DNA of 64,000 bases from a virus. This document shows positions 4,501 to 38,377 of the stretch, piece after piece. Position numbers and translations under genes: made by a program. The stretch is from IMG/VR virus record IMGVR_UViG_3300021476_000001, positions 1-64,000 of that record. One strand, written 5' to 3'. Under the pieces are notes generated by a model. It was not told the origin of the DNA, ran no database searches, and was given only the letters and a program-made list of their open reading frames with translations. The stretch's first letter is position 1, and each line of letters starts with the position of its first letter.

Positions 4501-4501
4501 G

Positions 4502-11926: not shown

Positions 11927-13146
11927 TGGCAAACACATTTGGGAGTTACAGTCAGCAGTTTCAACTTGTAGACCCACGCTATGTGATAGAGAACCGTGGA
12001 AGATTTCGTCGCGATATGTTTGTAGAGTTGGAACGCGCTAATAGTTATTACTCCATGTCTGGGAGATGGCCTGATGTTGGTTGGATTTTATTGGATAGGG
12101 GTAGCTACAACAAAATTAGTCAATACTCATCTACACTTCAATTAAACATTCAAGACTTTGTTAACCCACAACTAACGTTGACTAATCTATCTATCGTTCA
12201 GGCGCGATGTGTAACACGTGGACTTGTGTCAGACCCAGATGCTATATATCTAGTGCAGGTAACAAACTCTGAGGGAGTTCTATATAACTCTTGGTTTCAA
12301 CAGTCTGTTAACAAGCAATATAATGTACGTGTGCCTGCTTATGATGGTCAGTATTATTCTTGGAGTCTGAACAGTGGTGCACCCTGGACTTGGAACACTA
12401 TGATTGGAGACCTGTGGGCACAGGCTTCACCACAGTTAGGCTCATATCCAGGTCTCCCAATTACCCCATCAGCAGTACCTGAGAACTGGGTGTTTATAGG
12501 TGTATCACTGTGGGAGACAATAAGTCATATACTGGAGTACCTTGGACTAATTGTGTCTGGTGACTACCCAAACTTTAATATAGTTGTACCTGGAGCAGCA
12601 GATGCGTCGTTCACTGCACTACAGACGAAATATGCTCAATATCTTGTGGATGATTTGGAGTATATAGATGGTGGAAGTGGTCGTGTACCTGGAGAGATTG
12701 TAGTGTATTTTCATAGACGCAACCAGATATATGGAGCTGAGGAGACAGTAAGATATGATAGTTTGAACTGGCAATCCTCACCTACATACTCTGTAACTGT
12801 AAGTGCACCAACAACTTTTATTAACGCAACTGGGACGGGATACATCTGGTGTGAGTTTACTGTAAGATACGATCAGGATGGGAACCCGCTAGCAGCTGAT
12901 GTAGCACAGGCAAATACTATTGCTCAGGAGAGAGCTGCTCAGTACTTTAACACTTTATTTCGGGGAACACAGGGGTTTATGCGGCAGGTGTATAGTGGAG
13001 TGCTTCCGTTTTTGACTGGTAGTCTTGTAGACGGGATTCGGTGGTTTAATGAGGGGGATGGATGGTATACAGAACTTGTTCGTGGATACATCTGGGAAGA
13101 AGCGACATTTCCACTTACTCTTCAGGGTATCACAGGACCTAGATAG
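11926..13146 (+). CDS. hypothetical virion (tail-associated?) protein
   Basis: The start overlaps the upstream stop (TAATG at 11924-11928). 406-aa ORF directly followed by the fibre-like gene. No recognisable motif. Confidence 0.55.
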   Translation: MANTFGSYSQQFQLVDPRYVIENRGRFRRDMFVELERANSYYSMSGRWPDVGWILLDRGSYNKISQYSSTLQLNIQDFVNPQLTLTNLSIVQARCVTRGLVSDPDAIYLVQVTNSEGVLYNSWFQQSVNKQYNVRVPAYDGQYYSWSLNSGAPWTWNTMIGDLWAQASPQLGSYPGLPITPSAVPENWVFIGVSLWETISHILEYLGLIVSGDYPNFNIVVPGAADASFTALQTKYAQYLVDDLEYIDGGSGRVPGEIVVYFHRRNQIYGAEETVRYDSLNWQSSPTYSVTVSAPTTFINATGTGYIWCEFTVRYDQDGNPLAADVAQANTIAQERAAQYFNTLFRGTQGFMRQVYSGVLPFLTGSLVDGIRWFNEGDGWYTELVRGYIWEEATFPLTLQGITGPR

Positions 13147-14583
13147 ATGGAAAGTTACAATGCACAGTCACCGTACTTTGGCCAACGGCAGCCGGACTAT
13201 CCGCCGATGATTCAGCTGGTTCGTGTTACATCGGCAACCGTGCCCGGTCCATCTGGTTATACTTCTTCGTCTGTTCAGGCAGCTAACTTATATGTAGGTT
13301 CTACTCAGCAATTAGGGACTGGTACTTTGTTTCCTCGTGACAGGGAACCGTGTCTAGCGCTTGATGTAAATGGTTTTGGACTGATGCCTGGATATTATCT
13401 TGGGCGCTTAGCAGGGTCTTGGACGTCTTTACCTGTATATGAAGTGTGTTTTCTTCTTGATGACCTTGCCGCTATCACACCAAGCCAGAAAAGCGCTCTC
13501 CTCAGTAATTTAACACCAGCACAACTTAGTACACTTGATAACCTTAACGTATGCCAGTTTCAGGTTCTTTTAGGCTCGAATCCATCTTCGTCTAGTATAC
13601 CCAATATACCGTTGTTACAGCAGCTAACAACGGCTCTTACAGCAACTCAGTTAGGAACCTTGGTTGGGCAGTTGTCTATCCCTCAGTTGACTCCTATGCT
13701 GGGTACATTGACTACTACTCAACTTCAGAACCTCAGTAATAGTTTATCTGGAATCCAACTAGAGACGTTGCTACACGTGCTTAGCGTAGGTCAGTTTCAG
13801 ACGTTTACATCTGGGCTCAATCTGGGACAGCTTCAGGCTCTTGGTAATAACCTATCTGCATCTCAGCTAGGAGCGTTAGTACCGGCACTTAGTGTAGGAC
13901 AACTTCAGACTCTTGCGTCTAGTCTAAGTTCATCTCAGCTTCAAGCTCTTGCAAATCATCCGTCAGCTGCGATAGCAGCAATGGTTAGTTCGTTAGCATT
14001 TTCTGATCTGGTGTCTTTACTTAATAAAACTCCTCCAGTTCCTAATCCTATCATTGGCAGCCAGCAAGTCTTTCCGTATGTACCAGCTATCATTGGTTCT
14101 CCATCATCGACTCCGAGCTTGTCTCAGGGGTATGCGCCAGTTATAGTGGACCAGACGGACGGTCGTTTGTATGGCTACTTTGGAGGGTCGTGGACCAACT
14201 TGTCTATAGGTGGTGGAGGTGGAATAAGCAGTGCATATGGTGCTACTGAGTTTACTGGTACAACTACAAATGCCTTTGTTACTGTGTTTGACAAGGTAAA
14301 TAGTAATGGACTTCATGGAACTTTTTCTGCAAAGAATACTGGCTCAAATGGAATGACTCTTAGAGTTGTCCTTACAGATATGTATGGGAATAATGTTACA
14401 TCCTCCACGTCTAACATAGCAACCAGTGTAACAACTTGGTTGATGGATATGGACAGCAACACATTTGTAGGCAGCCCGGTTGGTGGTGTCTTCCCACCAT
14501 TTAAGGAGATAAAACTTCAGATTGAGGACCAGATTTCTGGTAGTCATACTACTTATGATATTTGGCTTAGTTTGAACAATTAG
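13147..14583 (+). CDS. tail fibre / spike-like protein with Ser/Thr-rich QL repeats
   Basis: About 13475-14025 encodes some 10 or more degenerate units L-S/T-x-x-Q-L/F-x-x-L (LTPAQLSTL, LTATQLGTL, LSIPQLTPM, LTTTQLQNL, LSGIQLETL, LSVGQFQTF, LNLGQLQAL, LSASQLGAL, LSVGQLQTL, LSSSQLQAL), followed by a C-terminal globular part. Function inferred from position and architecture only. Confidence 0.55.
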   Translation: MESYNAQSPYFGQRQPDYPPMIQLVRVTSATVPGPSGYTSSSVQAANLYVGSTQQLGTGTLFPRDREPCLALDVNGFGLMPGYYLGRLAGSWTSLPVYEVCFLLDDLAAITPSQKSALLSNLTPAQLSTLDNLNVCQFQVLLGSNPSSSSIPNIPLLQQLTTALTATQLGTLVGQLSIPQLTPMLGTLTTTQLQNLSNSLSGIQLETLLHVLSVGQFQTFTSGLNLGQLQALGNNLSASQLGALVPALSVGQLQTLASSLSSSQLQALANHPSAAIAAMVSSLAFSDLVSLLNKTPPVPNPIIGSQQVFPYVPAIIGSPSSTPSLSQGYAPVIVDQTDGRLYGYFGGSWTNLSIGGGGGISSAYGATEFTGTTTNAFVTVFDKVNSNGLHGTFSAKNTGSNGMTLRVVLTDMYGNNVTSSTSNIATSVTTWLMDMDSNTFVGSPVGGVFPPFKEIKLQIEDQISGSHTTYDIWLSLNN

Positions 14584-14602: not shown

Positions 14603-15652
14603 ATGTTCTGTGAGTGTAAAGAGGACGGCTTTTGTAGGCGCTATCAGCGTGAGATGGGTGGACGTATGCGTGAGGTGTGCGCTGGCGTGAACGTAGACAT
14701 CGGCACCTCGGCGGCCTTTAGAGAACAGTGGGCAAGAGAGGTAGAAGTAAATAAGTTTGAAGGTAACCCTAAGTCACTATTACTTAGAACGGACCAAGCG
14801 CCAGGTGACGCTCTTGTAATGACTGCGGCAATCTACTCGCTTCACAAAGCTTACCCTGGTAAGTATGTTACAGCAGTTGAGAGCCAGTGGCCAGAGGTGT
14901 TTGCACATAATCCGTATATAGTCCAAGCTCAGTCTGACTTTGGTGATCTTCATATGCACTACCCTGCTATTCATAAGTCGAACGAGCGTGGTATTCATTT
15001 CATGCAAGGGTGGTGCGAGTTTCTTGGAATGGCACTTGAGATAGATATACCTCTCTTAACTAATCGTCCACACCTATACTTTTCTGACCCTGCCCCACCT
15101 GTTGAGGACTTTTGGTTAATATGTTCAGGCGGTAAGACTGACTTTACTAATAAGTTATGGGGATATCTTAACTATGTCAGGGTTGCTGCCTCTCTAAGTA
15201 GGGAAGTTAAGTTTATACAAGTAGGCAATACTCTAAAGGAACATCCTCGTATAAATACGACAAATGTAACTTATATGGTTGGTCAGACAACACTACGTGA
15301 GTTATTTGACTTAACACGACGTGCTCGTGGAGTATTATGTGGTGTATCTCTTTTAATGCACATTGCAGCTGCATTAGAAAAACCTGCTATAATAGTAGCA
15401 GGTGGTCGTGAACCTGTTCAGTGGAATGCTTATCCTAAACAACATTACATGCACACAGTTGGAGCGCTACCGTGTCGAAGTGTACTAGGTGTAGTAGGTG
15501 GGGCCTGCTGGCGTTCCCGGACAGTAGCGCTTAATGATGGGACTGTACTTGATAAAGACCTATGCGAACGACCAGTTGATGGGACACCAGAGTGTATGAC
15601 GCTTATTAAGCCTTCACAGGTGGCGGCGCTAATCCTGAATTATAATAGATAG
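14603..15652 (+). CDS. glycosyltransferase family 9 (heptosyltransferase-like)
   Basis: LLLRTDQAPGDALVMTAAIYSLHKAYPG near the N-terminus and GVLCGVSLLMHIAAALEKPAIIVAGGREP near the C-terminus match the two GT9 hallmark regions as recalled. There are extra Cys clusters at both ends. Confidence 0.7.
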   Translation: MFCECKEDGFCRRYQREMGGRMREVCAGVNVDIGTSAAFREQWAREVEVNKFEGNPKSLLLRTDQAPGDALVMTAAIYSLHKAYPGKYVTAVESQWPEVFAHNPYIVQAQSDFGDLHMHYPAIHKSNERGIHFMQGWCEFLGMALEIDIPLLTNRPHLYFSDPAPPVEDFWLICSGGKTDFTNKLWGYLNYVRVAASLSREVKFIQVGNTLKEHPRINTTNVTYMVGQTTLRELFDLTRRARGVLCGVSLLMHIAAALEKPAIIVAGGREPVQWNAYPKQHYMHTVGALPCRSVLGVVGGACWRSRTVALNDGTVLDKDLCERPVDGTPECMTLIKPSQVAALILNYNR

Positions 15653-15669
15653 TATGAGGAGGGGAGCTA

Positions 15670-15906
15670 ATGACTGTGAAAGAGTTACGTGACTGTCTCT
15701 CTGGATTAGATGACGGTCAAATAGTTCTTATTGACTTGCACTCGTCAACATATCCGCATGGAAGGTCTGTAGAGGTTCAAGGTGTAATTGGTCACCGTAT
15801 ACTAGCACACGCTAGTAATAAACCATTAGACCTTGCACAAATGGATACTCTAGTCAAAGAGAAGCCAACGCCAGATAGTAAGTTAGTAAGAGGAGCTGGC
15901 GCATGA
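15670..15906 (+). CDS. hypothetical protein (78 aa)
   Basis: RBS-like gaggagggg sits upstream of ATG 15670. The stop overlaps the next start (ATGA). Confidence 0.45.
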   Translation: MTVKELRDCLSGLDDGQIVLIDLHSSTYPHGRSVEVQGVIGHRILAHASNKPLDLAQMDTLVKEKPTPDSKLVRGAGA

Positions 15907-17819
15907 CAACAATGTTGATTGCTAACAACTGTACAAGGGAGAATGGGCAGTTTATGGGGGACCAACTGTGTTATATAAAAGTAGCATACCTCTTTGTGCT
16001 GAATGAGCCGAGTGTAGACCACGTAATAATGTCAATGTCGCCAGGAAACGAGATGGACTTTCTTTGGAGGAAGTTTATCGACACTTATAATGTAGAAGTA
16101 ATACATGACTCTCTTAACCCAGGAGACAATGAGGGTCGATGGGTGATGTGGAACAAGTGGCGAGCAGATCGGAAAATAGAAGGTATACCATTTGACCACT
16201 ATAGAGAGTTGTACTTACGCATTCACGGTGGGTTTCGTCAAGCTGCTCTATGCGGTTTAGAGCGTGGTCTAGGTCGTCGTAATATATTTGAGTATATGTT
16301 CTACGGGCAAGAACACATGCCAGAAGGGTGTAATGGAGCAGACTGGTATGATGACTCGTTAATATACCATCCACCTCTTTCGCCAGAACGTGATGTATAC
16401 ATCTCTCCTCACTGTAAGACTCAAGGTAATATCACGTTCACTTTTGACTATTGGACGCAGGTAGTTCAGAAGTTGATAGATGCTGGTATCACAGCAACAG
16501 TAGGTTACGATGGATACTTTTGTGAGCACCTATTAGGTCACCCTTTATATAAGAAGCACTGGGGAGACCATAAGCAGTGGGTTGAGCAGATTTGTAAGCA
16601 TAAGATAGTTGCGTGTGGTAACACGGGATCGGGATGGATTGCAGCTGCATGTGGTGTCCCACTCTTTACAATGGAGCCACCTAATAGTCAGATGCCAGAC
16701 CACAGGTATAGAGAGTGTGGCCTACGGAATATAGTAGAGGTGATGGACACTCCTGACCCGGCCTACTGTGCTAAGCGCTTAATTGAGGAAGTTAATCGTG
16801 TAGTAGTTATGACTACCGGGTGCTATGATGTGCTACATGCTGGCCATATCCGCCACTTGGAACGGTCCAAAGCGCTTGGTACTAGACTTGTAGTGGCGAT
16901 GAACAGTGATAAGAGTGTTCGCCGTTTAAAGGGTCCAGCACGTCCGGTTAACCCTCAAAATCAACGAAAAGCTGTACTTGAGGCTCTGAGGTGTGTAGAC
17001 GAGGTTCGAGTATGTGAAGAGCCACTGGATGTGCTTAAGGAGTTGAAGCCATCTATACTTACAAATGGGTTTGGGTATACACCTGACACAGTAGTTGGTA
17101 AGGACCTAGTTGAGAGTTGGGGAGGTAAGGTCGTAGTAACTTGTTTTGGTGACGCCTCTAACGAGCCATCGACTACGAAGATAGTTAGAAAGCTTTTAAG
17201 GTTGGGGGATATAGTTGAGATTTGTAGAGTTGGTAGTAGATATAGTGTTAATCCTTACGAGAAGCTTAGGTTGATGGCAGACGAGTTTCTTAAAGTTGTA
17301 CACCTTGCTGGAGATGTTGCAGACCTGGGAGCATATCGGGGTGGTACTTCACTAATACTGCGTCGACTAGCTCCAGAGAAAAGACTCTATCTATTTGATA
17401 CATGGAATGGTACACCATTTAACGACGAACTTTGCCACCATAAGAAGGGGGAGTGGCCGTCTAGCTTAGAGGAGTGTCAATCAATAGTGGGTAAGGACAA
17501 GTTAACTATATACTTCGAGGGTATATTCCCGTATGTTGTTGAGAATCAGATAAAGGAGAATGCTTTCTGCTTTGTGTATGTGGATATGGACACATATCAG
17601 TCTACCTGTGATGCAATCAACTACTTTTGGCCTAAGCTGGTGCCAGGTGGTGTTCTGCTTCTTGACGACTATGGGTGGGAACCGTGCGCTGGTGTAAAGA
17701 AGGCAGTAGAAGAGTTACTTCCACCTGACCTATCTAAGTCACCTTGGGCATATAAAAGAAGTATAGTTGACAATTTATATACTTGTGTGGTTACAAAAAT
17801 CTCTGAGATAGTGGGTTAA
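15903..17819 (+). CDS. tri-domain enzyme: GT9-like + heptose-1-phosphate adenylyltransferase-like (HldE C-terminal half) + TylF-type O-methyltransferase
   Basis: N-terminal VACGNTGSGWIAAACGVPLFTMEPP is GT9-like. Central VVVMTTGCYDVLHAGHIRHLERSKALGTRLVVAMNSDKSVRRLKGPARPVNP (about 16800-17210) is colinear with HldE domain II. C-terminal GDVADLGAYRGGTS and VYVDMDTYQSTCDAINYFWPKLVPGGVLLLDDYG are TylF-like. Confidence 0.75.
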   Translation: MTTMLIANNCTRENGQFMGDQLCYIKVAYLFVLNEPSVDHVIMSMSPGNEMDFLWRKFIDTYNVEVIHDSLNPGDNEGRWVMWNKWRADRKIEGIPFDHYRELYLRIHGGFRQAALCGLERGLGRRNIFEYMFYGQEHMPEGCNGADWYDDSLIYHPPLSPERDVYISPHCKTQGNITFTFDYWTQVVQKLIDAGITATVGYDGYFCEHLLGHPLYKKHWGDHKQWVEQICKHKIVACGNTGSGWIAAACGVPLFTMEPPNSQMPDHRYRECGLRNIVEVMDTPDPAYCAKRLIEEVNRVVVMTTGCYDVLHAGHIRHLERSKALGTRLVVAMNSDKSVRRLKGPARPVNPQNQRKAVLEALRCVDEVRVCEEPLDVLKELKPSILTNGFGYTPDTVVGKDLVESWGGKVVVTCFGDASNEPSTTKIVRKLLRLGDIVEICRVGSRYSVNPYEKLRLMADEFLKVVHLAGDVADLGAYRGGTSLILRRLAPEKRLYLFDTWNGTPFNDELCHHKKGEWPSSLEECQSIVGKDKLTIYFEGIFPYVVENQIKENAFCFVYVDMDTYQSTCDAINYFWPKLVPGGVLLLDDYGWEPCAGVKKAVEELLPPDLSKSPWAYKRSIVDNLYTCVVTKISEIVG

Positions 17820-17822
17820 TAA

Positions 17823-18482
17823 ATGGACGACTTAATTACTCAGTATGATGAAGACTATTTCCTTCGTGGGAAGGAAACTGGTAAGTCCTTATATGAGAAC
17901 TATAGGTGGCTACCCAAACTTACGATTCCAATGGCTAAGAATATAATTGCTCGCCTTGGAATTGAAGTTGATATGACTGTGCTTGACTATGGATGTGCTT
18001 GTGGATATACAGTACGTGCGTTACGTGAAATAGGTATAGAGGCTTTTGGCGTTGACATCTCAGAGTGGGCTATTAGAAATTGCGATCCAACAGTAAGAGA
18101 GTGGGTTGTCCAGGGTAGTGAGATACCTCCAGGTATTGACTGGATTATTGCTAAGGATGTACTAGAGCATATACCTGATGTAAAGAGTGTAATAGATAAG
18201 ATGATGGACTCAAGCGCTGTTGGTATATTTGTAGCTGTACCATTATCGTTGGTAGACGGACAGGCATATGTTATACCAGACTATGAGAAAGATGTGACTC
18301 ATGTTCACCGCCTTACTCTAGCTTCGTGGGTACGGATGTTTATTCGGCATAAATGGTCGGTTGAGTGTTGCTATAGATTTAGAGGGGTAAAAGATAACTA
18401 TCATGGATGGATGTCGTGGGTAAAGTCCAACTATGACTTGTGGCAACACGGGAATGGGTTTATCATTTGTAGAAGAGTGTAA
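17823..18482 (+). CDS. class I SAM-dependent methyltransferase
   Basis: VLDYGCACGYTVRALREIGIEAFGVDIS matches the motif I / post-I pattern. A downstream DWIIAKDVLEHI segment is typical of this fold. Confidence 0.65.
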   Translation: MDDLITQYDEDYFLRGKETGKSLYENYRWLPKLTIPMAKNIIARLGIEVDMTVLDYGCACGYTVRALREIGIEAFGVDISEWAIRNCDPTVREWVVQGSEIPPGIDWIIAKDVLEHIPDVKSVIDKMMDSSAVGIFVAVPLSLVDGQAYVIPDYEKDVTHVHRLTLASWVRMFIRHKWSVECCYRFRGVKDNYHGWMSWVKSNYDLWQHGNGFIICRRV

Positions 18483-18560
18483 TATGATCGTATGGTATAT
18501 TTTATGTGGCATACTTGCGGCAGTGTTATTGTACTGCTTACATGAGAGCGAGATGTGATA

Positions 18561-19364
18561 ATGAGAACAAGCCTGACACTTGGATTGGTTGCAAATATGT
18601 ATAACGAGTGCAATGCCCTCCCAGGATGGTTGGAGACTCATCTACCATTCTTTGATGATGTACGTGTGGTACATACCGGACCACAAGGAGAACTATCTAA
18701 TGATGGCACCTTAGAGATACTAAAAAAGTGGAATATACCAGTGATTATTGACAGTATTGACGATGGATTTGGGGCAGTAAGAACACGAACAATTCACAGC
18801 AGTCCATGTGAGTACGTAATGCTATTAGATGCTGATGAAAGGTTTTACCCAGTCCACCGTCACTTGATGTGTACAGGGAACCCAACACCGTGGTCAGAAA
18901 TGGACCCAATACTAACATCATACACTTCAAACAAACCAGATTGGGAGGCTATAGGTCGCCTTGGAGCTAGTCTATGTATAGACATTAAAGAAACCTATAA
19001 CCAAGGTGCGTGGCTGCGTGAGATTATTACAAAAGAACATCCTGATGCAGTGTGTACTATTAGACGTCATTGGCATGATTTGTCATTTCGTCGTCCAACA
19101 CAGAGTTGGATGTTAGAGCCTGATTGGCAGATGCGAATTATAAGAAACGATAAGAGTATTTATTTTGACCCTGACACGCCTATGCACGAAAGGTTAGTTG
19201 GTGTTGGGAAAGTAGTTCGTGCTGACTTTGAGCGTGGACCGTTCTTCGACCACTTCCACTTCTTATTCAAGAAGATGGAGATGGATCAGCGCTATCACGA
19301 TGTAAAGATATATGACGCAATTCACGAGAGACGAAAACCACCAACGCTGGAGGAATTAAGATGA
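18561..19364 (+). CDS. GT-A fold (family 2-like) glycosyltransferase
   Basis: LVANMYNECNALPGWLE.. near the N-terminus and a DxD-type motif (YVMLLDADERF). ATG at 18561, or GTG at 18555. Confidence 0.5.
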   Translation: MRTSLTLGLVANMYNECNALPGWLETHLPFFDDVRVVHTGPQGELSNDGTLEILKKWNIPVIIDSIDDGFGAVRTRTIHSSPCEYVMLLDADERFYPVHRHLMCTGNPTPWSEMDPILTSYTSNKPDWEAIGRLGASLCIDIKETYNQGAWLREIITKEHPDAVCTIRRHWHDLSFRRPTQSWMLEPDWQMRIIRNDKSIYFDPDTPMHERLVGVGKVVRADFERGPFFDHFHFLFKKMEMDQRYHDVKIYDAIHERRKPPTLEELR

Positions 19365-19621
19365 AGTTACGTGAGTATAACGGTATAAGGGATGAAGTAG
19401 AAGGTATGATAGCTTTTGCACACGCTTTACTGGATGAGGCTGAGCGTAAAAAGAAAGAGGCACTAGCTACAGCACGTGCTTATCTAAAAGAAAAACTGGG
19501 AGCGGATATTTGTGGATCAGTGTCATCAATGCTAACTCAGGTTGAGCTTCAGGAAAGTGGAATTACAACTGCTGTAGGGCGTAGACCTGGAAAAGAACCA
19601 CATACAAGTGATCTAGTATAG
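19361..19621 (+). CDS. hypothetical small protein (86 aa)
   Basis: Start overlaps the upstream stop (ATGA). Helical, charged sequence. Lies directly upstream of a radical-SAM gene. Confidence 0.45.
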   Translation: MKLREYNGIRDEVEGMIAFAHALLDEAERKKKEALATARAYLKEKLGADICGSVSSMLTQVELQESGITTAVGRRPGKEPHTSDLV

Positions 19622-19630
19622 AGAAGACAG

Positions 19631-20536
19631 ATGAACTTTCAAGTTGAGCTTACTAGCTATTGCAATCTTACATGTGGCTACTGTCCAAACAAGGGTATGA
19701 AGCGTAAGCGGGCATTTATGTCTGACGAGATATGGACTCGAATACTGTTCGACTATATAATTCCATACAAGGATAAAAACTCGTTCTGCCCACCAACATT
19801 TATAGGTCATAAAGATGGGGAGCCACTTCTTAGCAAGAAACTTCCCGATAGGTTAATCGACGTATCTAACATGTGTCCTGATATGCACATTGACATTTAT
19901 AGTCATGGTCTGATGCTACCAAAATGGGAGAAGGGTAGAAGGGACTTCTTTCAGTTCTTATCAACACTGAGTAATCCAGTGCGATACATGATGTCATATC
20001 ACCCATATAACCATGATAATAGTATTAACAACTATGAACCTGTTGTTACGTATCTCAAGAAAATGTTCCACAGTTCAGGACTACCGAGGAATGTAGAGTT
20101 TATTACTGTGTCACATAAGTCTAAGTGGGTCTCGGAGGACATGCAGCAAGCATGGAAACAAACTTGGTTAGGGTACCCAATAACAGTACACTGTAATGTT
20201 CATATTAACCCTTGGACCGGACGTATTAAGGAAGAGGGAACAACTAAGTTTAATGGATGCCCTTATGGAGACTTTGGTCACTGGTTCTTTGGTGCTACAG
20301 GAAACATTATCGCGTGCTGCTTGGACCTTGAGGAAGAGATAATAATAGGGAACGTGCTAGAAGATAATCCGTCTGATATGTTTGAGCAAACGTCTAAGTT
20401 CTATGAGGTACAGAGAGAGACACAAAGGTTAAAGCAACGGCCGCTTAATGCTGTCTGCGATAATTGCTTCAACTATGATAGAAATGATAGAGAGCCAAAG
20501 CAAATGTTACAGTTAGGAAGGAGCATCCTAACATGA
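19631..20536 (+). CDS. radical SAM enzyme (Cys-rich C-terminal auxiliary domain)
   Basis: CNLTCGYCPNKG is the CxxxCxxC cluster motif at the N-terminus. C-terminal Cys residues (GCPYGD..IACCLD..CDNC) suggest a SPASM/twitch-like extension. Confidence 0.7.
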   Translation: MNFQVELTSYCNLTCGYCPNKGMKRKRAFMSDEIWTRILFDYIIPYKDKNSFCPPTFIGHKDGEPLLSKKLPDRLIDVSNMCPDMHIDIYSHGLMLPKWEKGRRDFFQFLSTLSNPVRYMMSYHPYNHDNSINNYEPVVTYLKKMFHSSGLPRNVEFITVSHKSKWVSEDMQQAWKQTWLGYPITVHCNVHINPWTGRIKEEGTTKFNGCPYGDFGHWFFGATGNIIACCLDLEEEIIIGNVLEDNPSDMFEQTSKFYEVQRETQRLKQRPLNAVCDNCFNYDRNDREPKQMLQLGRSILT

Positions 20537-21033
20537 TAAGACTAACTCTAGGCCCAGACTTATGGGTTGGAGACTCACACTCTCTAAAGTTAGCTCAGTC
20601 TGTAAATGTCAATGCTATATTTAATGTAGCACATGATCTATCCCAATTTGGTTGTGATAGTAGCACCCGACCTCTAATGATGAAGTTGGCAAGTAGAGGT
20701 GTAAAGTATATACATATGGGACTTATAAATGGACCAGGAAACGAAGTAATTGACTACTGCGCTGTAGTACTGTTCCTCAAGGGGATGATGCAGCGTTATA
20801 AATCAGTGCTTGTATATGACCACGATGGGGGTTTAGCGTTGGTTGTTGGAGCTATGTATACTAATCTTGTTGAAGGACAGCAGCGTTTAACTCCAAGCAC
20901 TTGGAGCCACTGGTTAACTTGGGATGAGTGTGTAGCCGACTATTCAGCACTAAGTTGTAAACTACCAAAGGTGCATGAAGTACACATTGAGATATTTAAC
21001 AGAATGCCTTGGGGGGTGTTGGCAGTTCTGTAG
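20533..21033 (+). CDS. dual-specificity-phosphatase-fold protein lacking the catalytic Cys-x5-Arg signature
   Basis: LWVGDSHSLKLAQSVNVNAIFNVAHDL and KSVLVYDHDGGLALVVGAMY align by eye to the DSP pattern (l.lG..gi..vlnv / VLVHCxAGxSRS). Asp replaces Cys and Ala replaces Arg. Confidence 0.35.
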   Translation: MIRLTLGPDLWVGDSHSLKLAQSVNVNAIFNVAHDLSQFGCDSSTRPLMMKLASRGVKYIHMGLINGPGNEVIDYCAVVLFLKGMMQRYKSVLVYDHDGGLALVVGAMYTNLVEGQQRLTPSTWSHWLTWDECVADYSALSCKLPKVHEVHIEIFNRMPWGVLAVL

Positions 21034-21044
21034 AGGAGGCTAAG

Positions 21045-22160
21045 GTGGTGAAGAAGCTTATAGTTGCAATTCCTCACAGTCACACTTGGTTCTGGACTCA
21101 GACCTGTATTGCCTCGCTCCAACGTAATCCTCCAGTGGCTGATGATTATAGTGTGAAAGTTGTTATTGTAGACAACTCTCCGTGGAGTCCAGCGATAAAA
21201 GGTATTCGCTGTACAGACTTAGGAAGTGTCGACTGGCTTCATATTATACCGAACGTGAAGTCAAATAAGTTCCATGCCAGTGGACTTGATTGTGTAGTAG
21301 AGAAGTTTGACTTTGATTACTTAATGGCGCTAGAAACAGACGTACTTGCTCTAAGACCAACTTGGTTGCAGTGGTTTGTGGACCAGATGAAGGAGACTGA
21401 CTTTGCAGTTGGTATGTGGCACCATGAGCAGTTTATAAATCCAAGTTGTACTCTTTATCGTGGCGATGCACTTCGTAAGATGCAGAAGTGGTGTTGGGAC
21501 GGTGCCCCTCAAGACAGGTTAAGATGGGGCGAGAATTTCTTTGAGTCTTCACCGCTTGACCCAAACCTAAATGTGCAGCTTACCGGTAACGCTGCACTCG
21601 TTGATCTTAAGTCATGGATAGCTGGTCCGTTTGCAGAGAAGCGCGGGTGGCCCACAGGAACAGTGCTAAAAGAGACTCCAAGTGGACAACTTAAAGGTCC
21701 AGGATGGTATGAACCTGGACAGCAACTTCACCATTGGGCGGTTGAAGAGGGATGGACGTATACTGTATGCCCAACCTTGACTACTAAGGATGCTACTGGC
21801 CTTCCTCTCCAAAGTATATATGGCGCTTTGATGAGTGATCCACTTCGTCAACTTGAAGCAGTTGAGTTATTTGGTAACGCAGAAACCGTTCACTTATGGG
21901 GTGGAACTCGGGCACTTGATATTATCAAACACGATATAACTTGTCGGTTTGTTAAGAGTAATACTCCTAACTGGCTTGCTAGAGAGGCAAGATTCTGGAG
22001 GGAAGTAGTACCATTACACGTCCAGAAGCAAACACTAGAACTTATTCGTAAGTATGGGTGGCACACTACAGGACAAGGAAGCCCATTTGTAAGTGACAGG
22101 GATAAAGAGGCTACTGAGTATGTTAGGGAGTGTTATAAGGTAGGGGGTGTTAGTTGGTGA
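21045..22160 (+). CDS. GT-A-like glycosyltransferase
   Basis: GTG 21045 follows RBS gaggagg (21033-21039). KLIVAIPHSHTW..VKVVIVDNSP and LMALETDVL (DxD-like) fit the GT-A pattern. Weak call. Confidence 0.45.
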   Translation: MVKKLIVAIPHSHTWFWTQTCIASLQRNPPVADDYSVKVVIVDNSPWSPAIKGIRCTDLGSVDWLHIIPNVKSNKFHASGLDCVVEKFDFDYLMALETDVLALRPTWLQWFVDQMKETDFAVGMWHHEQFINPSCTLYRGDALRKMQKWCWDGAPQDRLRWGENFFESSPLDPNLNVQLTGNAALVDLKSWIAGPFAEKRGWPTGTVLKETPSGQLKGPGWYEPGQQLHHWAVEEGWTYTVCPTLTTKDATGLPLQSIYGALMSDPLRQLEAVELFGNAETVHLWGGTRALDIIKHDITCRFVKSNTPNWLAREARFWREVVPLHVQKQTLELIRKYGWHTTGQGSPFVSDRDKEATEYVRECYKVGGVSW

Positions 22161-22196
22161 GATAACAATTTACTGTGAGATTATAGGGGGGAAACT

Positions 22197-22778
22197 ATGA
22201 TACCTATACGAGACATCTTCCGGTCCTATGCTGTTATAGTTGATGGAAAACATGTTAACGGGACTGATAAACAGTCTAATCATAACTATGGTGACGCTTA
22301 TGAGTCACTATTCTCGGACCGTAACAGTGTTAAGCTAATGATGGAGATTGGTGTTGCAGATGGTAGCTGTCTGCTCGCTTGGCGAGATATATTCCCAAAC
22401 GCGCTTATAGTAGGAATGGACATCCATCATAGTGACAAGGCACACGGAGACCGGATTGAGTTTAGACGTGGTGACCAACGTATACAACGTGACTGTGAGA
22501 ACGCAGCAGCAGACCGTCAATTTGACCTTATAGTAGAGGACGCTACCCACCACTTGGACCATACACTTCTAACTCTATACTGGATGTGGCCGTTTGTTAA
22601 GCCAGGTGGGTTATATGTAGTCGAGGAGTGGGATGGTGTTCACGAAAGTAGGGATAGAATAAAGCATGTATGGCCAAACGCTGAGATAGTTGATACAACT
22701 GGACCCTTTGGTGGAGTGGAATCTTTGGTTATATTTAGGAGACCCTATGAAACTTATACTTCCATATTGCACAGTTGA
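22197..22778 (+). CDS. class I SAM-dependent methyltransferase (CmcI / TylF-related)
   Basis: MMEIGVADGSCLLAWRDIFPNALIVGMDI (motif I) and FDLIVEDATHH..VKPGGLYVVEEW. Confidence 0.6.
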   Translation: MIPIRDIFRSYAVIVDGKHVNGTDKQSNHNYGDAYESLFSDRNSVKLMMEIGVADGSCLLAWRDIFPNALIVGMDIHHSDKAHGDRIEFRRGDQRIQRDCENAAADRQFDLIVEDATHHLDHTLLTLYWMWPFVKPGGLYVVEEWDGVHESRDRIKHVWPNAEIVDTTGPFGGVESLVIFRRPYETYTSILHS

Positions 22779-22998
22779 GATAGAACTTCCTGATGTGCTT
22801 AGTGGTCTAACTGACTGTATACATACTAATATTAGCATATCTTTGAGGGTTCCTCACGAGATTGACAACGTTAAGGTGAGGATGCCAAACAGTCAGATTG
22901 CAACCATAAAGAAATTTGCACTTGTAGAGATTAGAGGTCAAATGCTCCCATTCATTGCAGACGGTAGTATAGTCCGGTGGTTTACATTGGAGGAGTAG
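22747..22998 (+). CDS. hypothetical small protein (83 aa)
   Basis: ATG at 22747 within listed ORF 22690..22998. It overlaps the 3' end of the methyltransferase gene by 32 nt and lies upstream of the second radical-SAM gene. Confidence 0.35.
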   Translation: MKLILPYCTVEIELPDVLSGLTDCIHTNISISLRVPHEIDNVKVRMPNSQIATIKKFALVEIRGQMLPFIADGSIVRWFTLEE

Positions 22999-23061
22999 TA
23001 TGAGACCGTGGCAGGAATATCTAATGTCTAAACCACATAGTGCTGTAGAGGAGTTTCTATA

Positions 23062-24216
23062 GTGATTGATACATTCACTAGCACCGGCACAAAGTTTTTT
23101 GCTCACCAAGAGGCAATGACTAAGCTCCGTAATGGTAAGGGACAGCCAATAGTTACACACGTTATGTTGACGGATGTATGCAACCACACCTGCGCTTTCT
23201 GCTCTGTACAGGCAAGAGCTGGAGACTCGCTTCCATTTAATCATGTTACTAAATATCTTGACATACTCAAAGGTTATGGACTTAAGGCTGTAATCCTTTC
23301 TGGTGGTGGTAATCCAATACTTTATAGGTGCAAAGAGACTGGTCTCAACTTTAATGATATAGTAGAGGCGATTTATAAGAGAGGTCTGGAAATTGGTCTC
23401 ATTACAAATGGTATGCCGCTGAGAAGCTTTTATGGTGGTGATGCACCTAAAAGTTATTTGCTACGAGAATCTTGGGGGACCATTCGTCCAGAAACACTTG
23501 ATAAGTGTACATGGATTAGAATAAGCATGGCAGGTCTCGACCATGATGAACATGAGGTATATGTTCCTGATATAGACCCTAAAAAGACTATACTTGGATT
23601 TAGTTATGTTGCACATGATATTTATATTGAGCCAGCCGACCCACATCATGGCAAGGTATCAAGACCTGTCGACTTGATTGGTGATAAGGACCGTAAACCA
23701 GACTTATACTTTGAGGAACGTATTAGTGAGTTAACAGAACAGATCACTCACTATACTAAAACTTATAAGCCTAAATATGTTCGGATACTTCCAAACTGCC
23801 TAGAGCCAGAGCTAATACTACGCCGCTGTAAACAACTTAATAAGATGGCTGATATTATTAACTTTAACGTGGGTAAAGAAGTAGTGTTCGTTCAATATAA
23901 GCCACCAAAGGCTCCACATGCTTGCTATCTAGGTTATATCCATCCGGTGTTAAACTGTGATGGGTATGTATACCCGTGTGATAGTTGCGTCCTCAATGAA
24001 GCCGCTGGTCATCAGTTTTCTAACCCTTGGCGGGTGTGTCACTGGACAGACATTGGAATACTATATAGTGAGCCTATAGAGTCTCTAATTGACAACCCAG
24101 CAAATACATGTCCTGGTTGTGTGTTCACGAGGTCGAATGAGATACTTGAGGGTGTGGTCAATGGTGCTGAGACACCAGCACCTACTCAGTTTATTGAACA
24201 CATAAACTTTGTATAG
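23062..24216 (+). CDS. radical SAM enzyme
   Basis: GTG start. DVCNHTCAFCSVQ is a CxxxCxxC motif. Glycine-rich ILSGGGNPILY. C-terminal Cys pairs (CDGYVYPCDSC, CPGC). Confidence 0.7.
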   Translation: MIDTFTSTGTKFFAHQEAMTKLRNGKGQPIVTHVMLTDVCNHTCAFCSVQARAGDSLPFNHVTKYLDILKGYGLKAVILSGGGNPILYRCKETGLNFNDIVEAIYKRGLEIGLITNGMPLRSFYGGDAPKSYLLRESWGTIRPETLDKCTWIRISMAGLDHDEHEVYVPDIDPKKTILGFSYVAHDIYIEPADPHHGKVSRPVDLIGDKDRKPDLYFEERISELTEQITHYTKTYKPKYVRILPNCLEPELILRRCKQLNKMADIINFNVGKEVVFVQYKPPKAPHACYLGYIHPVLNCDGYVYPCDSCVLNEAAGHQFSNPWRVCHWTDIGILYSEPIESLIDNPANTCPGCVFTRSNEILEGVVNGAETPAPTQFIEHINFV

Positions 24217-24238
24217 TTTGTAGAAAGGAGAAAGTTAT

Positions 24239-24538
24239 ATGCCTCATACTTGTCATGCAACTGGATGTATCGAAGTGGTACGACCAGAACTCTTTATGTG
24301 CAGAAAGCACTGGTTTAGTCTACCAGAAGCTTTGCGCAAACTAATTCGGGCAGCATACCGTTCTGGTCAGTGTGACGACTGGAGAATTAGTAAGGTATAT
24401 GCTGATGCTGCACGAGAAGCAATAAGGTATATTGCAACTAAAGAGGGGGTTGTACCTGATACACAAGTGTATGACGTTTTAGAACCGGGGAACAAATTAG
24501 GTGATATAGTTAGGGGCTTAAAGGGGCAGCAACCGTGA
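24239..24538 (+). CDS. small Cys/His-rich (zinc-binding?) protein
   Basis: RBS aaaggag upstream. N-terminal HTCHATGC..CRKHW. Confidence 0.45.
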   Translation: MPHTCHATGCIEVVRPELFMCRKHWFSLPEALRKLIRAAYRSGQCDDWRISKVYADAAREAIRYIATKEGVVPDTQVYDVLEPGNKLGDIVRGLKGQQP

Positions 24539-25428
24539 GTATAGACAAGATAAATATACTTATATCTCTTCACAAGGGATATGGACTTGGTGATGCAGTA
24601 CAGATGAGCACTGTACTCCGTCACGCAGTTGCAGCACGTTCTCACTGGGTAACAGATTTTCAAGCCGAGGATGGAAAGCAGTGGGTGGGAAGTGGTATCG
24701 TTGATAAGGTCTTCGCTTATGGTGAACCATACCCAAGAGACCACTATGACGCTGAGGTCCAAATACGCCTTTATGACACATGGGCTAACTGGGGAGACCG
24801 CCCTAACACTAGGGTATGCTCGTGCTTGCATGAACAATTTGGTTTAGGCTGGAAGCCAGAGTATGGACGTTATCATATTAGCGTCTCACAGAAAGCTCTG
24901 GACTTAGTAAGGTGGAGACTGAAAGCGTTTGGAAGTCGTGACTTTATCGCTATTCACTATGAAGGTGACAGTTCACAGGCGAAGAAAAATCTTAACACTG
25001 ACCAGGCTGCTAGGATATGTGTAGAGATTGATAAACTTGGATATTCTCCACTTATTCTTGACTGGAGACGTCGATCTACATTAGAATGTTGTAAACTTCA
25101 GTCACCTGAGAAGTGGGGAGGTAACGCTGAGACGGTGTGTGCAGTTATCTCTCAGTGTAAAGCTTTTGTTGGTATTGACAGTGGACCATCTAAGTGTGCA
25201 AGCGCTACAAATACTCCAGCAGCAGTAATATGGACTGGTCACCACCCTGCACCGTTTCACGACCCTGCACCGAATACAACACATATAGTCCCAATAGGTT
25301 ATCATGGACTAGACCCAGTATGTAACGATGTAGGTGTAATCAACTGGTTCGAGGAGAATTATAATGTGCTAAAGTACGTTGGAGACCCAGTTTCCATTGT
25401 TACTCAGTGGTTAAGGAGAATGCTGTAA
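24535..25428 (+). CDS. glycosyltransferase family 9 (heptosyltransferase-like)
   Basis: ILISLHKGYGLGDAVQMSTVLRH at the N-terminus and AVISQCKAFVGIDSGPSKCASATNTPAAVIWTG at the C-terminus match the GT9 hallmark regions. Confidence 0.7.
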   Translation: MSIDKINILISLHKGYGLGDAVQMSTVLRHAVAARSHWVTDFQAEDGKQWVGSGIVDKVFAYGEPYPRDHYDAEVQIRLYDTWANWGDRPNTRVCSCLHEQFGLGWKPEYGRYHISVSQKALDLVRWRLKAFGSRDFIAIHYEGDSSQAKKNLNTDQAARICVEIDKLGYSPLILDWRRRSTLECCKLQSPEKWGGNAETVCAVISQCKAFVGIDSGPSKCASATNTPAAVIWTGHHPAPFHDPAPNTTHIVPIGYHGLDPVCNDVGVINWFEENYNVLKYVGDPVSIVTQWLRRML

Positions 25429-26288
25429 TGAACTTGGTCAGACAGCTGCTTAACAGAATTAGTAAAGATAAAAAGCGGGTTATTGTTATTGGTGACGCTA
25501 TACTAGACGTATGGGTTTATGGAACTCTTGAACCATGTCAAGACCAGTGTCAAAAGTTGGTTGAGAACGCCCGTTATACATCGCGTGGTGGAGCTGGCAA
25601 TGCTTGTGAGAGTATTAGACACTGGAAGATAAAGACTCAGCTATATAGTTTCTCAGGAAGTCATCAACCAGTTAAGGTACGATTTGTTGGGGATGATAGT
25701 AAGTTTACACTTCGGTGGGATTATGAAACTCCTTCATTAGAAGTGGACCGAATAGGGTATAAACCAGTGTACGATAGCACATTGAGGATGTGTAGGTGTG
25801 CTAGTGGTGTCTTGTTAAGTGACTATGACAAAGGGTTTTTGACACCAGAGTTTATTCGTGAGGTGATTAGTATATGTAATTGGCGTAACATCCCGTGCGT
25901 TGCTGACGTGAAACGAATACCCAAGATATATAGTGGAGCTGTTATAAAGTGCAATCATCAGTATTGGGAGAACCATTTGAGTAGGGGTATACCACCAGAA
26001 GGTAGTAAAGCACTGGTGGTAACAAGAGGACCAAAGGCTCCTTACTTCTTTGAGACTGGAAAAGGTACGGATGGATTCTCTGATGGAAAACCGGTTGAGT
26101 GTATTAACCACGTCGGTGCAGGAGACTGCTTCGCTGCACACTTAACACTCGCATTAGCCTATGGTTTTACACTAAGGGAAGCCGCTATCATCGCCCACAG
26201 CGCAGGTAGGGTATATGTTCAACACCCTCACAACCGACCACCATTGCCAAGTGAGGTTGAGCAAGACCTTGAAATGTCTACCTCTTAG
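25428..26288 (+). CDS. PfkB-family sugar kinase, HldE N-terminal-half-like (heptose-7-phosphate kinase-like)
   Basis: ATG 25428 (TAATG overlap; RBS aaggag at 25411-25416). RVIVIGDAILDVWVYG, RGGAGNA, GVLLSDYDKGFL and INHVGAGDCFAAHLTLALAYG are colinear with E. coli HldE domain I as recalled. Confidence 0.75.
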   Translation: MNLVRQLLNRISKDKKRVIVIGDAILDVWVYGTLEPCQDQCQKLVENARYTSRGGAGNACESIRHWKIKTQLYSFSGSHQPVKVRFVGDDSKFTLRWDYETPSLEVDRIGYKPVYDSTLRMCRCASGVLLSDYDKGFLTPEFIREVISICNWRNIPCVADVKRIPKIYSGAVIKCNHQYWENHLSRGIPPEGSKALVVTRGPKAPYFFETGKGTDGFSDGKPVECINHVGAGDCFAAHLTLALAYGFTLREAAIIAHSAGRVYVQHPHNRPPLPSEVEQDLEMSTS

Positions 26289-26607
26289 TAATCTCTACTT
26301 CAACCCCGTACTTTCCTGCTCTCTGCTTGTATATCCAAGTATATAAAGGGCTTCCATCGTCTATACCAACAGTCCTTGCGATCTCGTCTCTAACATACTT
26401 GCAAGATATAGCTAAGTTATCGTCGTCTAACTTTTTAGGTCCAACCCTTGTAATAGTTATCAACAGTGGAGGACTTGGAAAGGTCTCAACCTTTTTGATA
26501 TAGCGCTGAGTTGTAAGTTTCTGCTTCTTCTTCAAAGCGATATGTGATCGCCAGTTCTTAAATGTATTTACCAGTGAGGGTAACTTAAGTGGTATGTTGA
26601 ACCGCAT
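26278..26607 (-). CDS. RusA-like Holliday junction resolvase
   Basis: IPLKLPSLVN.., GPKKLDDDNLAISCKYVRDEIARTVGIDDGSP and GVEVEITK parallel RusA (ITLPWPPSNN / RRRDLDNLQKAAFDAL..WLDDAQV / LELTITE). RBS ggag precedes the ATG. Confidence 0.55.
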   Translation of the reverse strand: MRFNIPLKLPSLVNTFKNWRSHIALKKKQKLTTQRYIKKVETFPSPPLLITITRVGPKKLDDDNLAISCKYVRDEIARTVGIDDGSPLYTWIYKQRAGKYGVEVEITKR

Positions 26608-26886: not shown

Positions 26887-26914
26887 TTGACACTCCCGGC
26901 CATTCCGTTATAAT
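26887..26914 (+). promoter_or_regulatory. sigma70-type promoter with consensus hexamers
   Basis: TTGACA (26887-26892), a 16-nt spacer, then TATAAT (26909-26914). It points into the rightward replication block in the only divergent intergenic gap of this region. Confidence 0.65.
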
Positions 26915-36712: not shown

Positions 36713-36786
36713 ACGACCGTAGAGCAGCGGCCTAGCTCGCCTGGCCCATAACCAGGAGGTCGGTGGTTCAAATCCACCCGGTCGTA
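36713..36786 (+). tRNA. tRNA with CAT anticodon, initiator-tRNA-like body
   Basis: Hand-folded cloverleaf. Acceptor acgaccg/cggtcgt, D arm gagc-agcggccta-gctc, anticodon arm cctgg-cccataa-ccagg. Variable loop aggtc, T arm ggtgg-ttcaaat-ccacc, discriminator a. 74 nt, no encoded CCA. Confidence 0.75.
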
Positions 36787-38172: not shown

Positions 38173-38244
38173 AGGCGCTTAGCTCAGAGGTAGAGCAGGA
38201 GACTCATAGTCTCTTGGTCGCTGGTTCGACCCCAGCAGTGCCTA
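38173..38244 (+). tRNA. tRNA with CAT anticodon, tRNA-Ile2 (lysidine)-like body
   Basis: Hand-folded cloverleaf. Acceptor aggcgct/agtgcct (one G:U pair), D arm gctc-agaggta-gagc, anticodon arm ggaga-ctcatag-tctct. Variable loop tggtc, T arm gctgg-ttcgacc-ccagc, discriminator a. 72 nt. Confidence 0.75.
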
Positions 38245-38377
38245 CTATGCCAGCCTCAAATAGAGTAGGACAACCAAGGAAGACACCGGTGTAAGAAGTA
38301 GTACATGGAGAGTGTACTATAAGATTGGGTTACAAAACTTGGTCTGGGCCATCAGCTTGCAAGGTAAGGAGTTAACT

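Follow-up and report, generated by a model that had tools for sequence, protein, structure and literature searches.

A phage-borne island of heptose-pathway-like enzymes, GT9-like transferases and tailoring genes that may serve virion glycosylation

What does a virus do with a long, contiguous run of genes for sugar chemistry, and onto what would their product be built? The question is raised by an uncultured phage with a genome of ~74 kb and relatives present in IMG/VR, of which positions 1 to 64,000 (IMG/VR virus record IMGVR_UViG_3300021476_000001) form the stretch analyzed here; by "the window" we mean this whole stretch of 64,000 nucleotides (nt). Downstream of a putative tail fiber gene the window carries an island (positions 14603-26288) of 15 tightly packed genes, all on the + strand, an arrangement with which independent gene calls on the contig agree. 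It is highly likely that the island encodes a pathway for sugar activation and glycan assembly. As to the recipient, we tentatively propose, with somewhat less than even confidence, that the enzymes act in the cytoplasm to glycosylate virion proteins with a methylated, heptose-containing glycan.

The case for heptose begins with a 638-amino-acid (aa) protein (15903-17819, + strand) in which a GT9-like domain, a nucleotidyltransferase and a TylF methyltransferase are fused. The middle domain matched NCBIfam rfaE_dom_II (E = 9.7e-42; 142.2 bits against an equivalog cut-off of 181.5) and PHROG 7878, was 45.9% identical to Salmonella RfaE, and had as its best match in the Protein Data Bank (PDB) the nucleotidyltransferase 5x9q (E = 1.6e-23); judged by these similarities, it is probably a heptose-1-phosphate adenylyltransferase. 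The last gene of the island encodes a PfkB-family kinase with GGAGNA and VGAGD motifs that matched rfaE_dom_I (E = 7.2e-23; 81.2 bits, cut-off 345), the next family reaching only 26 bits. Unlike bifunctional HldE, in which both domains share one polypeptide, the two HldE-like halves are here encoded in separate genes ~8 kb apart. Both fall below their NCBIfam equivalog cut-offs, yet rfaE_dom_I and rfaE_dom_II are by far their top-scoring families. When genome contigs were searched with the fusion protein, the sole matches were two bacterial HldE-like sequences, one in a Phycisphaeraceae metagenome-assembled genome and one in an uncultured bacterium, and they gave no hint of the host.

Five glycosyltransferase (GT) domains accompany these enzymes, three of them GT9-like with a GT-B fold and two with a GT-A fold (Table 1). 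The N-terminal domain of the fusion had no Pfam match. Its AlphaFold2 model (residues 1-295, pLDDT 88.9) was searched with Foldseek against the PDB, where the top nine matches were WaaC and TibC (WaaC 2h1f, E = 1.4e-9; TibC 4rap, 2.7e-7), followed by WaaF 1psw and 3tov; sequence identity to TibC was only 11-13%. Invariant in 51 fusion sequences were G19-D20 and a G239-N-T-G-x-G-W loop. The free-standing 349-aa protein that opens the island was 50-64% identical to its counterparts in relatives, and its alignment revealed an N-terminal extension rich in Cys, a further cluster of Cys residues at the C-terminus and a conserved G68-D69 motif. The third protein, of 297 aa, has conserved LGD (residues 18-20) and DSGP (residues 215-218) motifs and is the weakest of the three GT9-like assignments. 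In a scan of 60 sequences, 46 of them homologues of this protein, 43 matched PF01075 (E ≤ 0.01, best 1.2e-5); the scan counts matches per family without identifying the matching members, so attributions to individual families drawn from it are indirect. Neither PDB searches, including one with a 46-sequence profile, nor hhalign supported a GT9 identity for the 297-aa protein. Among the three GT9-like families hhalign found no significant link in alignments that were shallow (Neff ~2), and for that reason we do not claim the three proteins as close paralogues.

The first of the two GT-A enzymes (18555-19364) fell below the Pfam cut-off by itself, and eight sequences in the same scan, the number of its family members scanned, matched PF00535 (best E = 1.1e-10). 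The second, of 383 aa, gave an AlphaFold2 model (pLDDT 85.4) with Foldseek matches to TarS, TarP, RmlT and WrtF at E ~1e-5 across ~170 residues, as well as to viral GT2-like models; its C-terminal domain of ~200 aa is unique. Single-sequence PDB searches with this protein and with the two free-standing GT9-like proteins returned nothing significant.

The remaining recognizable enzymes would modify sugars. The island has four S-adenosylmethionine (SAM) methyltransferase domains, among them the TylF domain of the fusion, whose PDB matches were the O-methyltransferases 5i10, 4cdz, NovP and MycF, and the free-standing enzymes at 17823-18482 and 22197-22778. Of the two radical-SAM enzymes, both with auxiliary clusters, the one with a SPASM/twitch domain carries the CxxxCxxC motif as CNLTCGYC and had BtrN as its best PDB match (4m7s, E = 1.2e-9). 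BtrN is a dehydrogenase acting on a cyclitol, and the phage protein is probably a sugar C-H oxidizing or epimerizing enzyme. The other, of 384 aa, has the motif CNHTCAFC and is weakly viperin/MoaA-like (PDB viperin, E = 0.0037). Between these lies a protein with a dual-specificity-phosphatase (DSP) fold: five scanned sequences matched Pfam DSPc against six family members scanned (best E = 1.2e-7). In the alignment its catalytic HCxxGxxR loop is degenerate, reading YDHDGGLAL, with Asp in place of Cys and the Arg lost. Cys and Arg are likewise lost in one relative (L011, 7972-8826) and are kept in four others (L001, L003, L006 and L012); the copy studied here may be a pseudo-phosphatase or have altered chemistry. 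As a working substitute for GmhB in this genome it was rejected, its Cys-X5-Arg loop being destroyed.

Table 1. Positions in the window of the island's features, of the fiber gene before it and of the promoter beyond it
Feature	Position	Strand	Basis or remark
Putative tail fiber/receptor-binding protein, 478 aa	13147..14583	+	No family match; eleven 12-residue L[ST]xxQLxxL repeats
GT9-family glycosyltransferase, 349 aa	14603..15652	+	Pfam PF01075 (Glyco_transf_9), 36.2 bits vs cut-off 22
Small open reading frame, 78 aa	15670..15906	+	Called gene; no family match; same-sized gene at this place in L006/L007
Fusion, N-terminal domain (residues 1-295): GT-B fold, GT9-like	15903..16787	+	AlphaFold2 + Foldseek
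Fusion, middle domain (residues ~296-431): HldE-domain-II/HldC-like sugar-1-phosphate nucleotidyltransferase	16788..17207	+	rfaE_dom_II, 5x9q
Fusion, C-terminal domain (residues ~456-607): TylF/Methyltransf_24-type sugar O-methyltransferase	17208..17819	+	TylF 42.6 bits, Methyltransf_24 28.4 bits
Class I SAM methyltransferase (Methyltransf_23)	17823..18482	+	Pfam 45 bits; PHROG 27380, E 2.7e-26
GT-A (GT2-like) glycosyltransferase, 267-269 aa	18555..19364	+	Own Pfam match 20.8 bits, below cut-off
Small open reading frame, 86 aa	19361..19621	+	Called gene; no family match
Radical-SAM enzyme with SPASM/twitch auxiliary-cluster domain, BtrN-like	19631..20536	+	SPASM 26.6 bits vs 21.5
Dual-specificity-phosphatase-fold protein, 166 aa	20533..21033	+	DSPc by family members; own copy no match
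GT-A-fold glycosyltransferase, 383 aa (called gene from 21048, 370 aa)	21009..22160	+	AlphaFold2 + Foldseek
Class I SAM methyltransferase (Methyltransf_24/CmcI-like)	22197..22778	+	Pfam 25.8 bits vs cut-off 26.3; PHROG 21658, E 1.5e-18
Small open reading frame, 83 aa	22747..22998	+	Called gene; no family match
Radical-SAM enzyme, 384 aa, Cys-rich C-terminal region	23062..24216	+	Radical_SAM 33.8 bits vs 29.5
Small Cys-containing open reading frame, 99 aa	24239..24538	+	Called gene; no family match
Divergent GT9-like glycosyltransferase, 297 aa	24535..25428	+	PF01075 19.3 bits, below cut-off 22
PfkB-family sugar kinase	25428..26288 (alternative start 25407)	+	PfkB 44.6 bits; best match HldE domain I
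Perfect sigma-70-type promoter, TTGACA-16-TATAAT	26887..26914	+	12/12 consensus; precedes replication genes

This composition agrees closely with an earlier note that had read the island from its letters and translations. The extent and content it gave hold essentially as claimed, as one + strand run with 15 called genes in place of "about 16." The split HldE-like halves have rfaE_dom_II and rfaE_dom_I as their best profile matches; the two GT-A-like enzymes are supported, one by the family scan (PF00535) and one by AlphaFold2 and Foldseek; and the three class I SAM methyltransferases (Pfam, PHROG), the two radical-SAM enzymes (both above Pfam cut-offs) and the phosphatase-fold protein (DSPc matches among family members) were all recovered. 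Its three GT9 domains are borne out for the 349-aa protein by Pfam and for the fusion N-terminus by structure; the 297-aa protein, below cut-off, is a weaker case. The note also knew of no described phage system of this composition, and none was found in the phage records or literature searched.

One reading of such enzymes turns to a soluble product or another target inside the cell: the island might make a methylated heptose-containing small molecule (cf. septacidin, hygromycin B) or attach sugar to a host protein so as to commandeer or disable the cell. The TylF/NovP/MycF-like and BtrN-like matches do stem from antibiotic sugar pathways, the natural-product GT-B transferases GtfA, GtfD and kitacinnamycin transferase are also among the Foldseek matches of the fusion N-terminal domain, and the radical-SAM/methyltransferase pair described below is found in numerous viral settings that lack the remainder of the island. 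The likeness to natural-product enzymes, however, holds only at the level of fold or superfamily, no genes for aglycone formation, export or resistance are present, and the island's constant position in relatives, where it closes the structural operon, suits a virion-linked role better. We regard this explanation as improbable.

In this genome the operon is compact. Intergenic gaps within the island are at most 78 nt, genes overlap by 4 nt at four junctions, and GGAGG-like Shine-Dalgarno motifs precede nearly all starts. The first island gene begins 19 nt past the end of the putative fiber gene, and the last runs into two small convergent genes. Beyond these lies the promoter listed in Table 1, the sole perfect sigma-70 match in the ~39 kb scanned. 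A sequence scan found no comparably strong promoter and no convincing terminator between the structural and fiber genes and the island. We infer that the late (virion) operon closes with the island and is bounded by this promoter; glycosyltransferases and an O-methyltransferase are embedded in a structural operon, as in known virion-glycosylation cassettes. The sigma-70 scans showed no overall enrichment, and no inference about the host is drawn from them.

If the target is the virion, a sequence of steps can be envisaged. Heptose-7-phosphate and a 7-phosphatase activity would be drawn from the host, and the phage kinase and adenylyltransferase domain would boost the supply of ADP-heptose. The fusion of the adenylyltransferase with a GT9-like domain and an O-methyltransferase suggests channelling, by which donor synthesis would lead directly into transfer and methylation. 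The remaining transferases would lengthen the chain, and the methyltransferases and radical-SAM enzymes would tailor its sugars. Acceptors would be soluble virion proteins (fiber, capsid or decoration proteins) modified in the cytoplasm before assembly, on the pattern of capsid and tail glycosylation in mycobacteriophages and of the protein heptosyltransferases TibC and AAH, with the possible benefit that the particle surface is shielded or altered. Candidates are the products of 13147-14583 and 11926-13146, a Ser/Thr-rich protein of 444 aa (54800-56134), a decoration-like protein (59513-60310) and a capsid candidate encoded just past the window. No transmembrane segment is present in any island protein, and the set lacks a flippase, a polymerase and a ligase, so the acceptor must be accessible from the cytoplasm. 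A virion target is favored by the location of such genes in late structural modules in three lineages, by the wholly soluble enzymes, by the lack of any integrase seen and by the presence of TibC among the top structural matches; from gene context, we infer that the virion is to be preferred over the host envelope.

The envelope nevertheless has enzymes in its favor. GT9-like transferases, working during infection on the cytoplasmic side of the inner membrane, might add extra methylated heptoses to Kdo2-lipid A or the inner core of lipopolysaccharide (LPS), like WaaC, WaaF and WaaQ, and a receptor masked or altered in this way would bring superinfection exclusion or keep progeny from being lost on debris. 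WaaC is the top structural match of the fusion N-terminal domain, and the top NCBIfam matches of the 349-aa protein are LPS heptosyltransferases II and III, but those equivalog scores are far under cut-off (31.7 vs 134.6; 17.4 vs 569). Core transferases need no transmembrane segment, so the absence of such segments is compatible with this explanation; outside the island the genome also has a gene for a membrane PAP2 lipid-phosphate phosphatase, and HldE-like genes of cyanophages carry heptose-pathway annotation. LPS conversion is classically a prophage trait, whereas this genome looks lytic, given that no integrase was detected. The island and its distant homologues sit in late structural modules; for decorating a core within one infection cycle, a set of five transferases, four methyltransferases and two radical-SAM enzymes is large; and the explanation presupposes heptose-containing LPS in the host. 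On balance we consider LPS remodelling a serious rival, but less likely than a virion target.

For the virion reading, the nearest candidate acceptor was the fiber protein encoded immediately upstream, whose Ser/Thr-rich repeats the earlier note had singled out. Comparison with relatives that keep the island does not support this proposal. Only the N-terminal ~100 aa (residues 5-103) are conserved and the remainder is variable, the distal part being swapped: Gln/Leu-containing 12-residue repeats in this genome, a collagen-like region in the L006 protein (3928-4563) and ~1,100 aa in the L003 protein (4035-7424).

The island itself is widely shared. The three-domain fusion has more than 700 homologues, of which the best 120 share 61-72% identity with it, in nearly every case across at least 92% of their length, and many of their loci lie on contigs of ~60-88 kb. 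The 297-aa GT9-like protein and the 383-aa GT-A protein have about 350 homologues each; the latter is the most conserved island protein (353 homologues, the 120 listed all at least 63% identical). In the relatives fetched, gene order is conserved at 45-75% identity, and the 3' boundary is common to them: the GT9-like gene, the PfkB gene, two convergent genes, then early genes. Accessory genes occur inside several of these islands, among them a dTDP-glucose 4,6-dehydratase homologue with a LAGLIDADG-type intein insert (L003, 19566-21659), a PAPS-reductase-like gene (L003, 9128-9994), a ThyX gene beside an HNH endonuclease (L006, 10231-11022), a dCTP-deaminase-like gene (L097, 1-398), extra methyltransferases and a second DSP-fold gene. 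Neither the fusion nor the 383-aa protein occurs in any cultured phage of the collection searched: tblastn of the latter against 50,697 phage records gave no match, nor did megablast of the island against the same records reveal near-identical DNA. Exact look-ups of the fusion and of the 370-aa product matched no record; the 297-aa protein led to the contig itself. Cultured phages, mainly cyanophages, have only isolated HldE-domain-II-like genes.

A homologous core extends to more distant viral contigs, comprising a GT9-containing transferase, a GT-A enzyme, the 384-aa radical-SAM enzyme, a homologue of the 383-aa GT-A protein and methyltransferases, sometimes also with the SPASM enzyme and the DSP-fold protein. 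In L012 this core lies downstream of genes whose products match portal and major capsid proteins; in L013 and L040 it comes directly before the tail genes, a few small genes leading up to that for the tape-measure protein in L013; and in L040 homologues of those small genes occupy the same position after the core, two neighboring proteins there having no match in phage records. For the 384-aa radical-SAM gene at least 80 viral relatives were found, and 69 of 80 IMG/VR loci with such a gene also have a homologue of the Methyltransf_23 enzyme, mostly directly adjacent; in the island studied here the two genes are 5 kb apart. The pair (loci L017-L096; L014, 8671-10753) often occurs without the rest of the island, and the context of the 80 loci was not classifiable with marker proteins from these phages, which were too divergent. 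In the Pelagibacter phage HTVC008M the pair is gp158-gp159, beside a glycosyltransferase and other sugar genes.

Some of the accessory genes would fit a third recipient. The earlier note had named the virion and the host envelope and had left out DNA, for which phage heptosylation of cytosine has been reported (10.1101/2023.12.21.572611). Here heptose-containing glycans would be carried on a modified base and would block restriction and other nucleases. In the documented case, phage clusters with kinase, phosphatase, nucleotidyltransferase and GT-B genes put mono- or di-heptose on 5-hydroxymethylcytosine (5hmC; bioRxiv 10.1101/2023.12.21.572611), and comparable sugar-activation steps are used by the clusters that arabinosylate 5-hydroxycytosine (5hoC), with isomerase, kinase, phosphatase and nucleotidyltransferase steps (PMC13326640). 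A ThyX, dCTP-deaminase-like or PAPS-reductase-like gene in the islands of some relatives, and a soluble cytoplasmic enzyme set, would suit a DNA substrate. What characterizes the described DNA-glycan clusters, however, is an adjacent thymidylate-synthase homologue or the combination of a C5 methyltransferase with a TET-like oxygenase (10.1101/2023.12.21.572611), and no base-activating enzyme of these types is recognizable in the ~74-kb genome: Pfam and PHROG searches of those of the window's open reading frames that were scanned and precomputed Pfam results for the rest of the contig revealed no thymidylate-synthase homologue, TET/JBP-type oxygenase, C5 methyltransferase or dNMP kinase. One that escapes recognition could be present among the uncharacterized reading frames. 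The sole DNA methylase found belongs to the N6/N4 type; the island runs in the same direction as the structural genes, with the convergent genes and the strong promoter between it and the replication module; and no methylated or radical-SAM-tailored DNA glycans were found in the literature searched. DNA as the recipient seems to us a long shot.

Virion glycosylation is the reading we prefer, and several observations weigh against it. The repeat region of the fiber is unconserved among island-bearing relatives, and no acceptor was identified. In structure the LPS enzyme WaaC matches slightly better than TibC does. The heptose assignment, probable from profile similarity, draws on best matches beneath curated equivalog cut-offs. 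Profile searches detected no GmhA or HAD-type GmhB in the island, as the earlier note had stated, and no HldD, leaving the ADP-heptose pathway incomplete; nor did the island, the rest of the window or accessory genes of the relatives give SIS or HAD matches, and the DSP-fold protein looks inactive in this genome. Gene position is circumstantial evidence of a target: according to an NEB preprint (10.1101/2023.12.21.572611), DNA-glycan clusters may also adjoin structural genes, and in HTVC008M the radical-SAM/methyltransferase pair adjoins ribonucleotide reductase genes, not structural ones. The ThyX, dCTP-deaminase-like and PAPS-reductase-like insertions in relatives belong on the same side.

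Other genes of the window confirm that the contig is a phage: a large terminase, a MuF-like 1742-aa protein and a tape-measure-like fragment for packaging and structure, and a family A DNA polymerase, primase, helicase, UDG-superfamily protein and PD-(D/E)XK nuclease for replication. The terminase gene (51757-54249) is interrupted by a LAGLIDADG-type intein or homing-endonuclease insert. The MuF-like polyvalent protein ("minor head protein / DNA pilot," 4478-9706) has homologues of 1,824-2,443 aa in relatives, with NUDIX, ADP-ribosyltransferase and intein matches. Two tRNA-Met (CAT) genes (36713-36786 and 38173-38245) lie inside the replication module. The PAP2-type protein (152 aa; L016, 12620-13078), encoded ~1.4 kb past the window's right end, has PSGH and SRxxxxxHxxxD motifs and ~3 hydrophobic segments, and its gene adjoins a major capsid candidate. 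At the 3' border of the island, the convergent gene at 26278-26607 (- strand), earlier labelled RusA-like, had no Pfam, NCBIfam or PHROG match; its LDDDNL...DD motif, seen by eye, resembles RusA, and a convergent gene of 108-111 aa occupies this position in relatives. A 667-aa flavin amine-oxidase-like gene (9923-11926; Pfam Amino_oxidase, E = 3e-20, plus NAD_binding_8), which lies among structural genes just upstream of the fiber genes, was ruled out as a member of the island, being absent from the related loci examined.

Known examples of glycosylation by phages and viruses are the small cassettes of mycobacteriophages, the capsid glycans of giant viruses and, as a recent addition, DNA glycans; virion glycosylation in mycobacteriophages is reportedly the subject of work by Freeman et al. 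in 2023 in Cell Host Microbe. The island is larger than the known phage cassettes and chemically different from them, combining heptose activation, GT9-like domains, methyltransferases and radical-SAM enzymes. In its broadest form our proposal would be that a large clade of uncultured phages coats its virions with a methylated, radical-SAM-tailored heptose glycan by means of GT9-type protein heptosyltransferases, with phage enzymes only; stated so fully, it is doubtful. To our knowledge, such heptosyltransferases have so far been described only for bacterial autotransporter adhesins. Were it true, heptose-based virion glycosylation would here be met for the first time, as would a phage pathway that fuses donor synthesis, transfer and methylation in one protein. 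A virion target would also mean that glycan coats are common in environmental phages, with consequences for adsorption and stability and for how host or animal immune systems recognize the particles; an LPS or DNA target would instead reveal a new route to receptor masking or anti-restriction. The locus in any case offers enzymes of interest: the GT9-HldC-TylF fusion, the widespread viral radical-SAM/methyltransferase pair and a BtrN-like, putatively sugar-modifying radical-SAM enzyme.

Set beside known systems, the island shares with the bacterial ADP-heptose pathway (GmhA, HldE or HldA+HldC, GmhB, HldD) and its transferases WaaC, WaaF and WaaQ a kinase, an adenylyltransferase and GT9-fold homologues; it differs in lacking GmhA, GmhB and HldD, in its split HldE halves and in the fusion of the adenylyltransferase to GT9-like and TylF domains. 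TibC and AAH (BAHT family, GT9), dodecamers with an iron-finger, are cytoplasmic enzymes that use ADP-heptose to put heptose on Ser residues in repeat-rich proteins. The fusion N-terminal domain has TibC among its nearest solved structures, but the acceptor of these enzymes is an adjacent repeat-rich autotransporter, whereas the island adjoins a phage fiber gene and no autotransporter gene. Among marine T4-like phages, in which glycan ("LPS-like") gene clusters occur, Synechococcus phages S-CAM1 and S-T4 have HldE-domain-II-like nucleotidyltransferases, and HTVC008M (gp156-164) has homologues of the 384-aa radical-SAM and Methyltransf_23 enzymes beside a glycosyltransferase. The HTVC008M region differs in its carbamoyltransferase, UDP-glucose dehydrogenase and 2-oxoglutarate (2OG) oxygenase and its place beside nucleotide-metabolism genes; no gene in the region shown is annotated as GT9 or as a PfkB kinase, none encodes a three-domain fusion, and the genome of HTVC008M is of a different type from that of the island phage. 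Phage DNA-glycan clusters (10.1101/2023.12.21.572611; RB69/DLP3, PMC13326640) resemble the island in joining sugar-activation modules to transferases related to LPS enzymes. Their heptose transferase, by contrast, is T4 beta-glucosyltransferase-like and adjacent to base-precursor enzymes, none of which was found in the island genome, and no methyltransferase or radical-SAM tailoring is described for them, whereas the island has both. The mycobacteriophage cassettes (Corndog gp35-38, PMC4351075) come close in plan, with glycosyltransferases and an O-methyltransferase, all soluble, within a structural operon; the acceptors proposed or demonstrated for them belong to the capsid and tail, and for the island such proteins are candidates. 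Those cassettes, in phages of actinobacteria, comprise 2-4 genes without GT9, nucleotide-sugar synthesis or radical-SAM genes, whereas the island has 15 and brings GT9-like, heptose-pathway and radical-SAM genes together.

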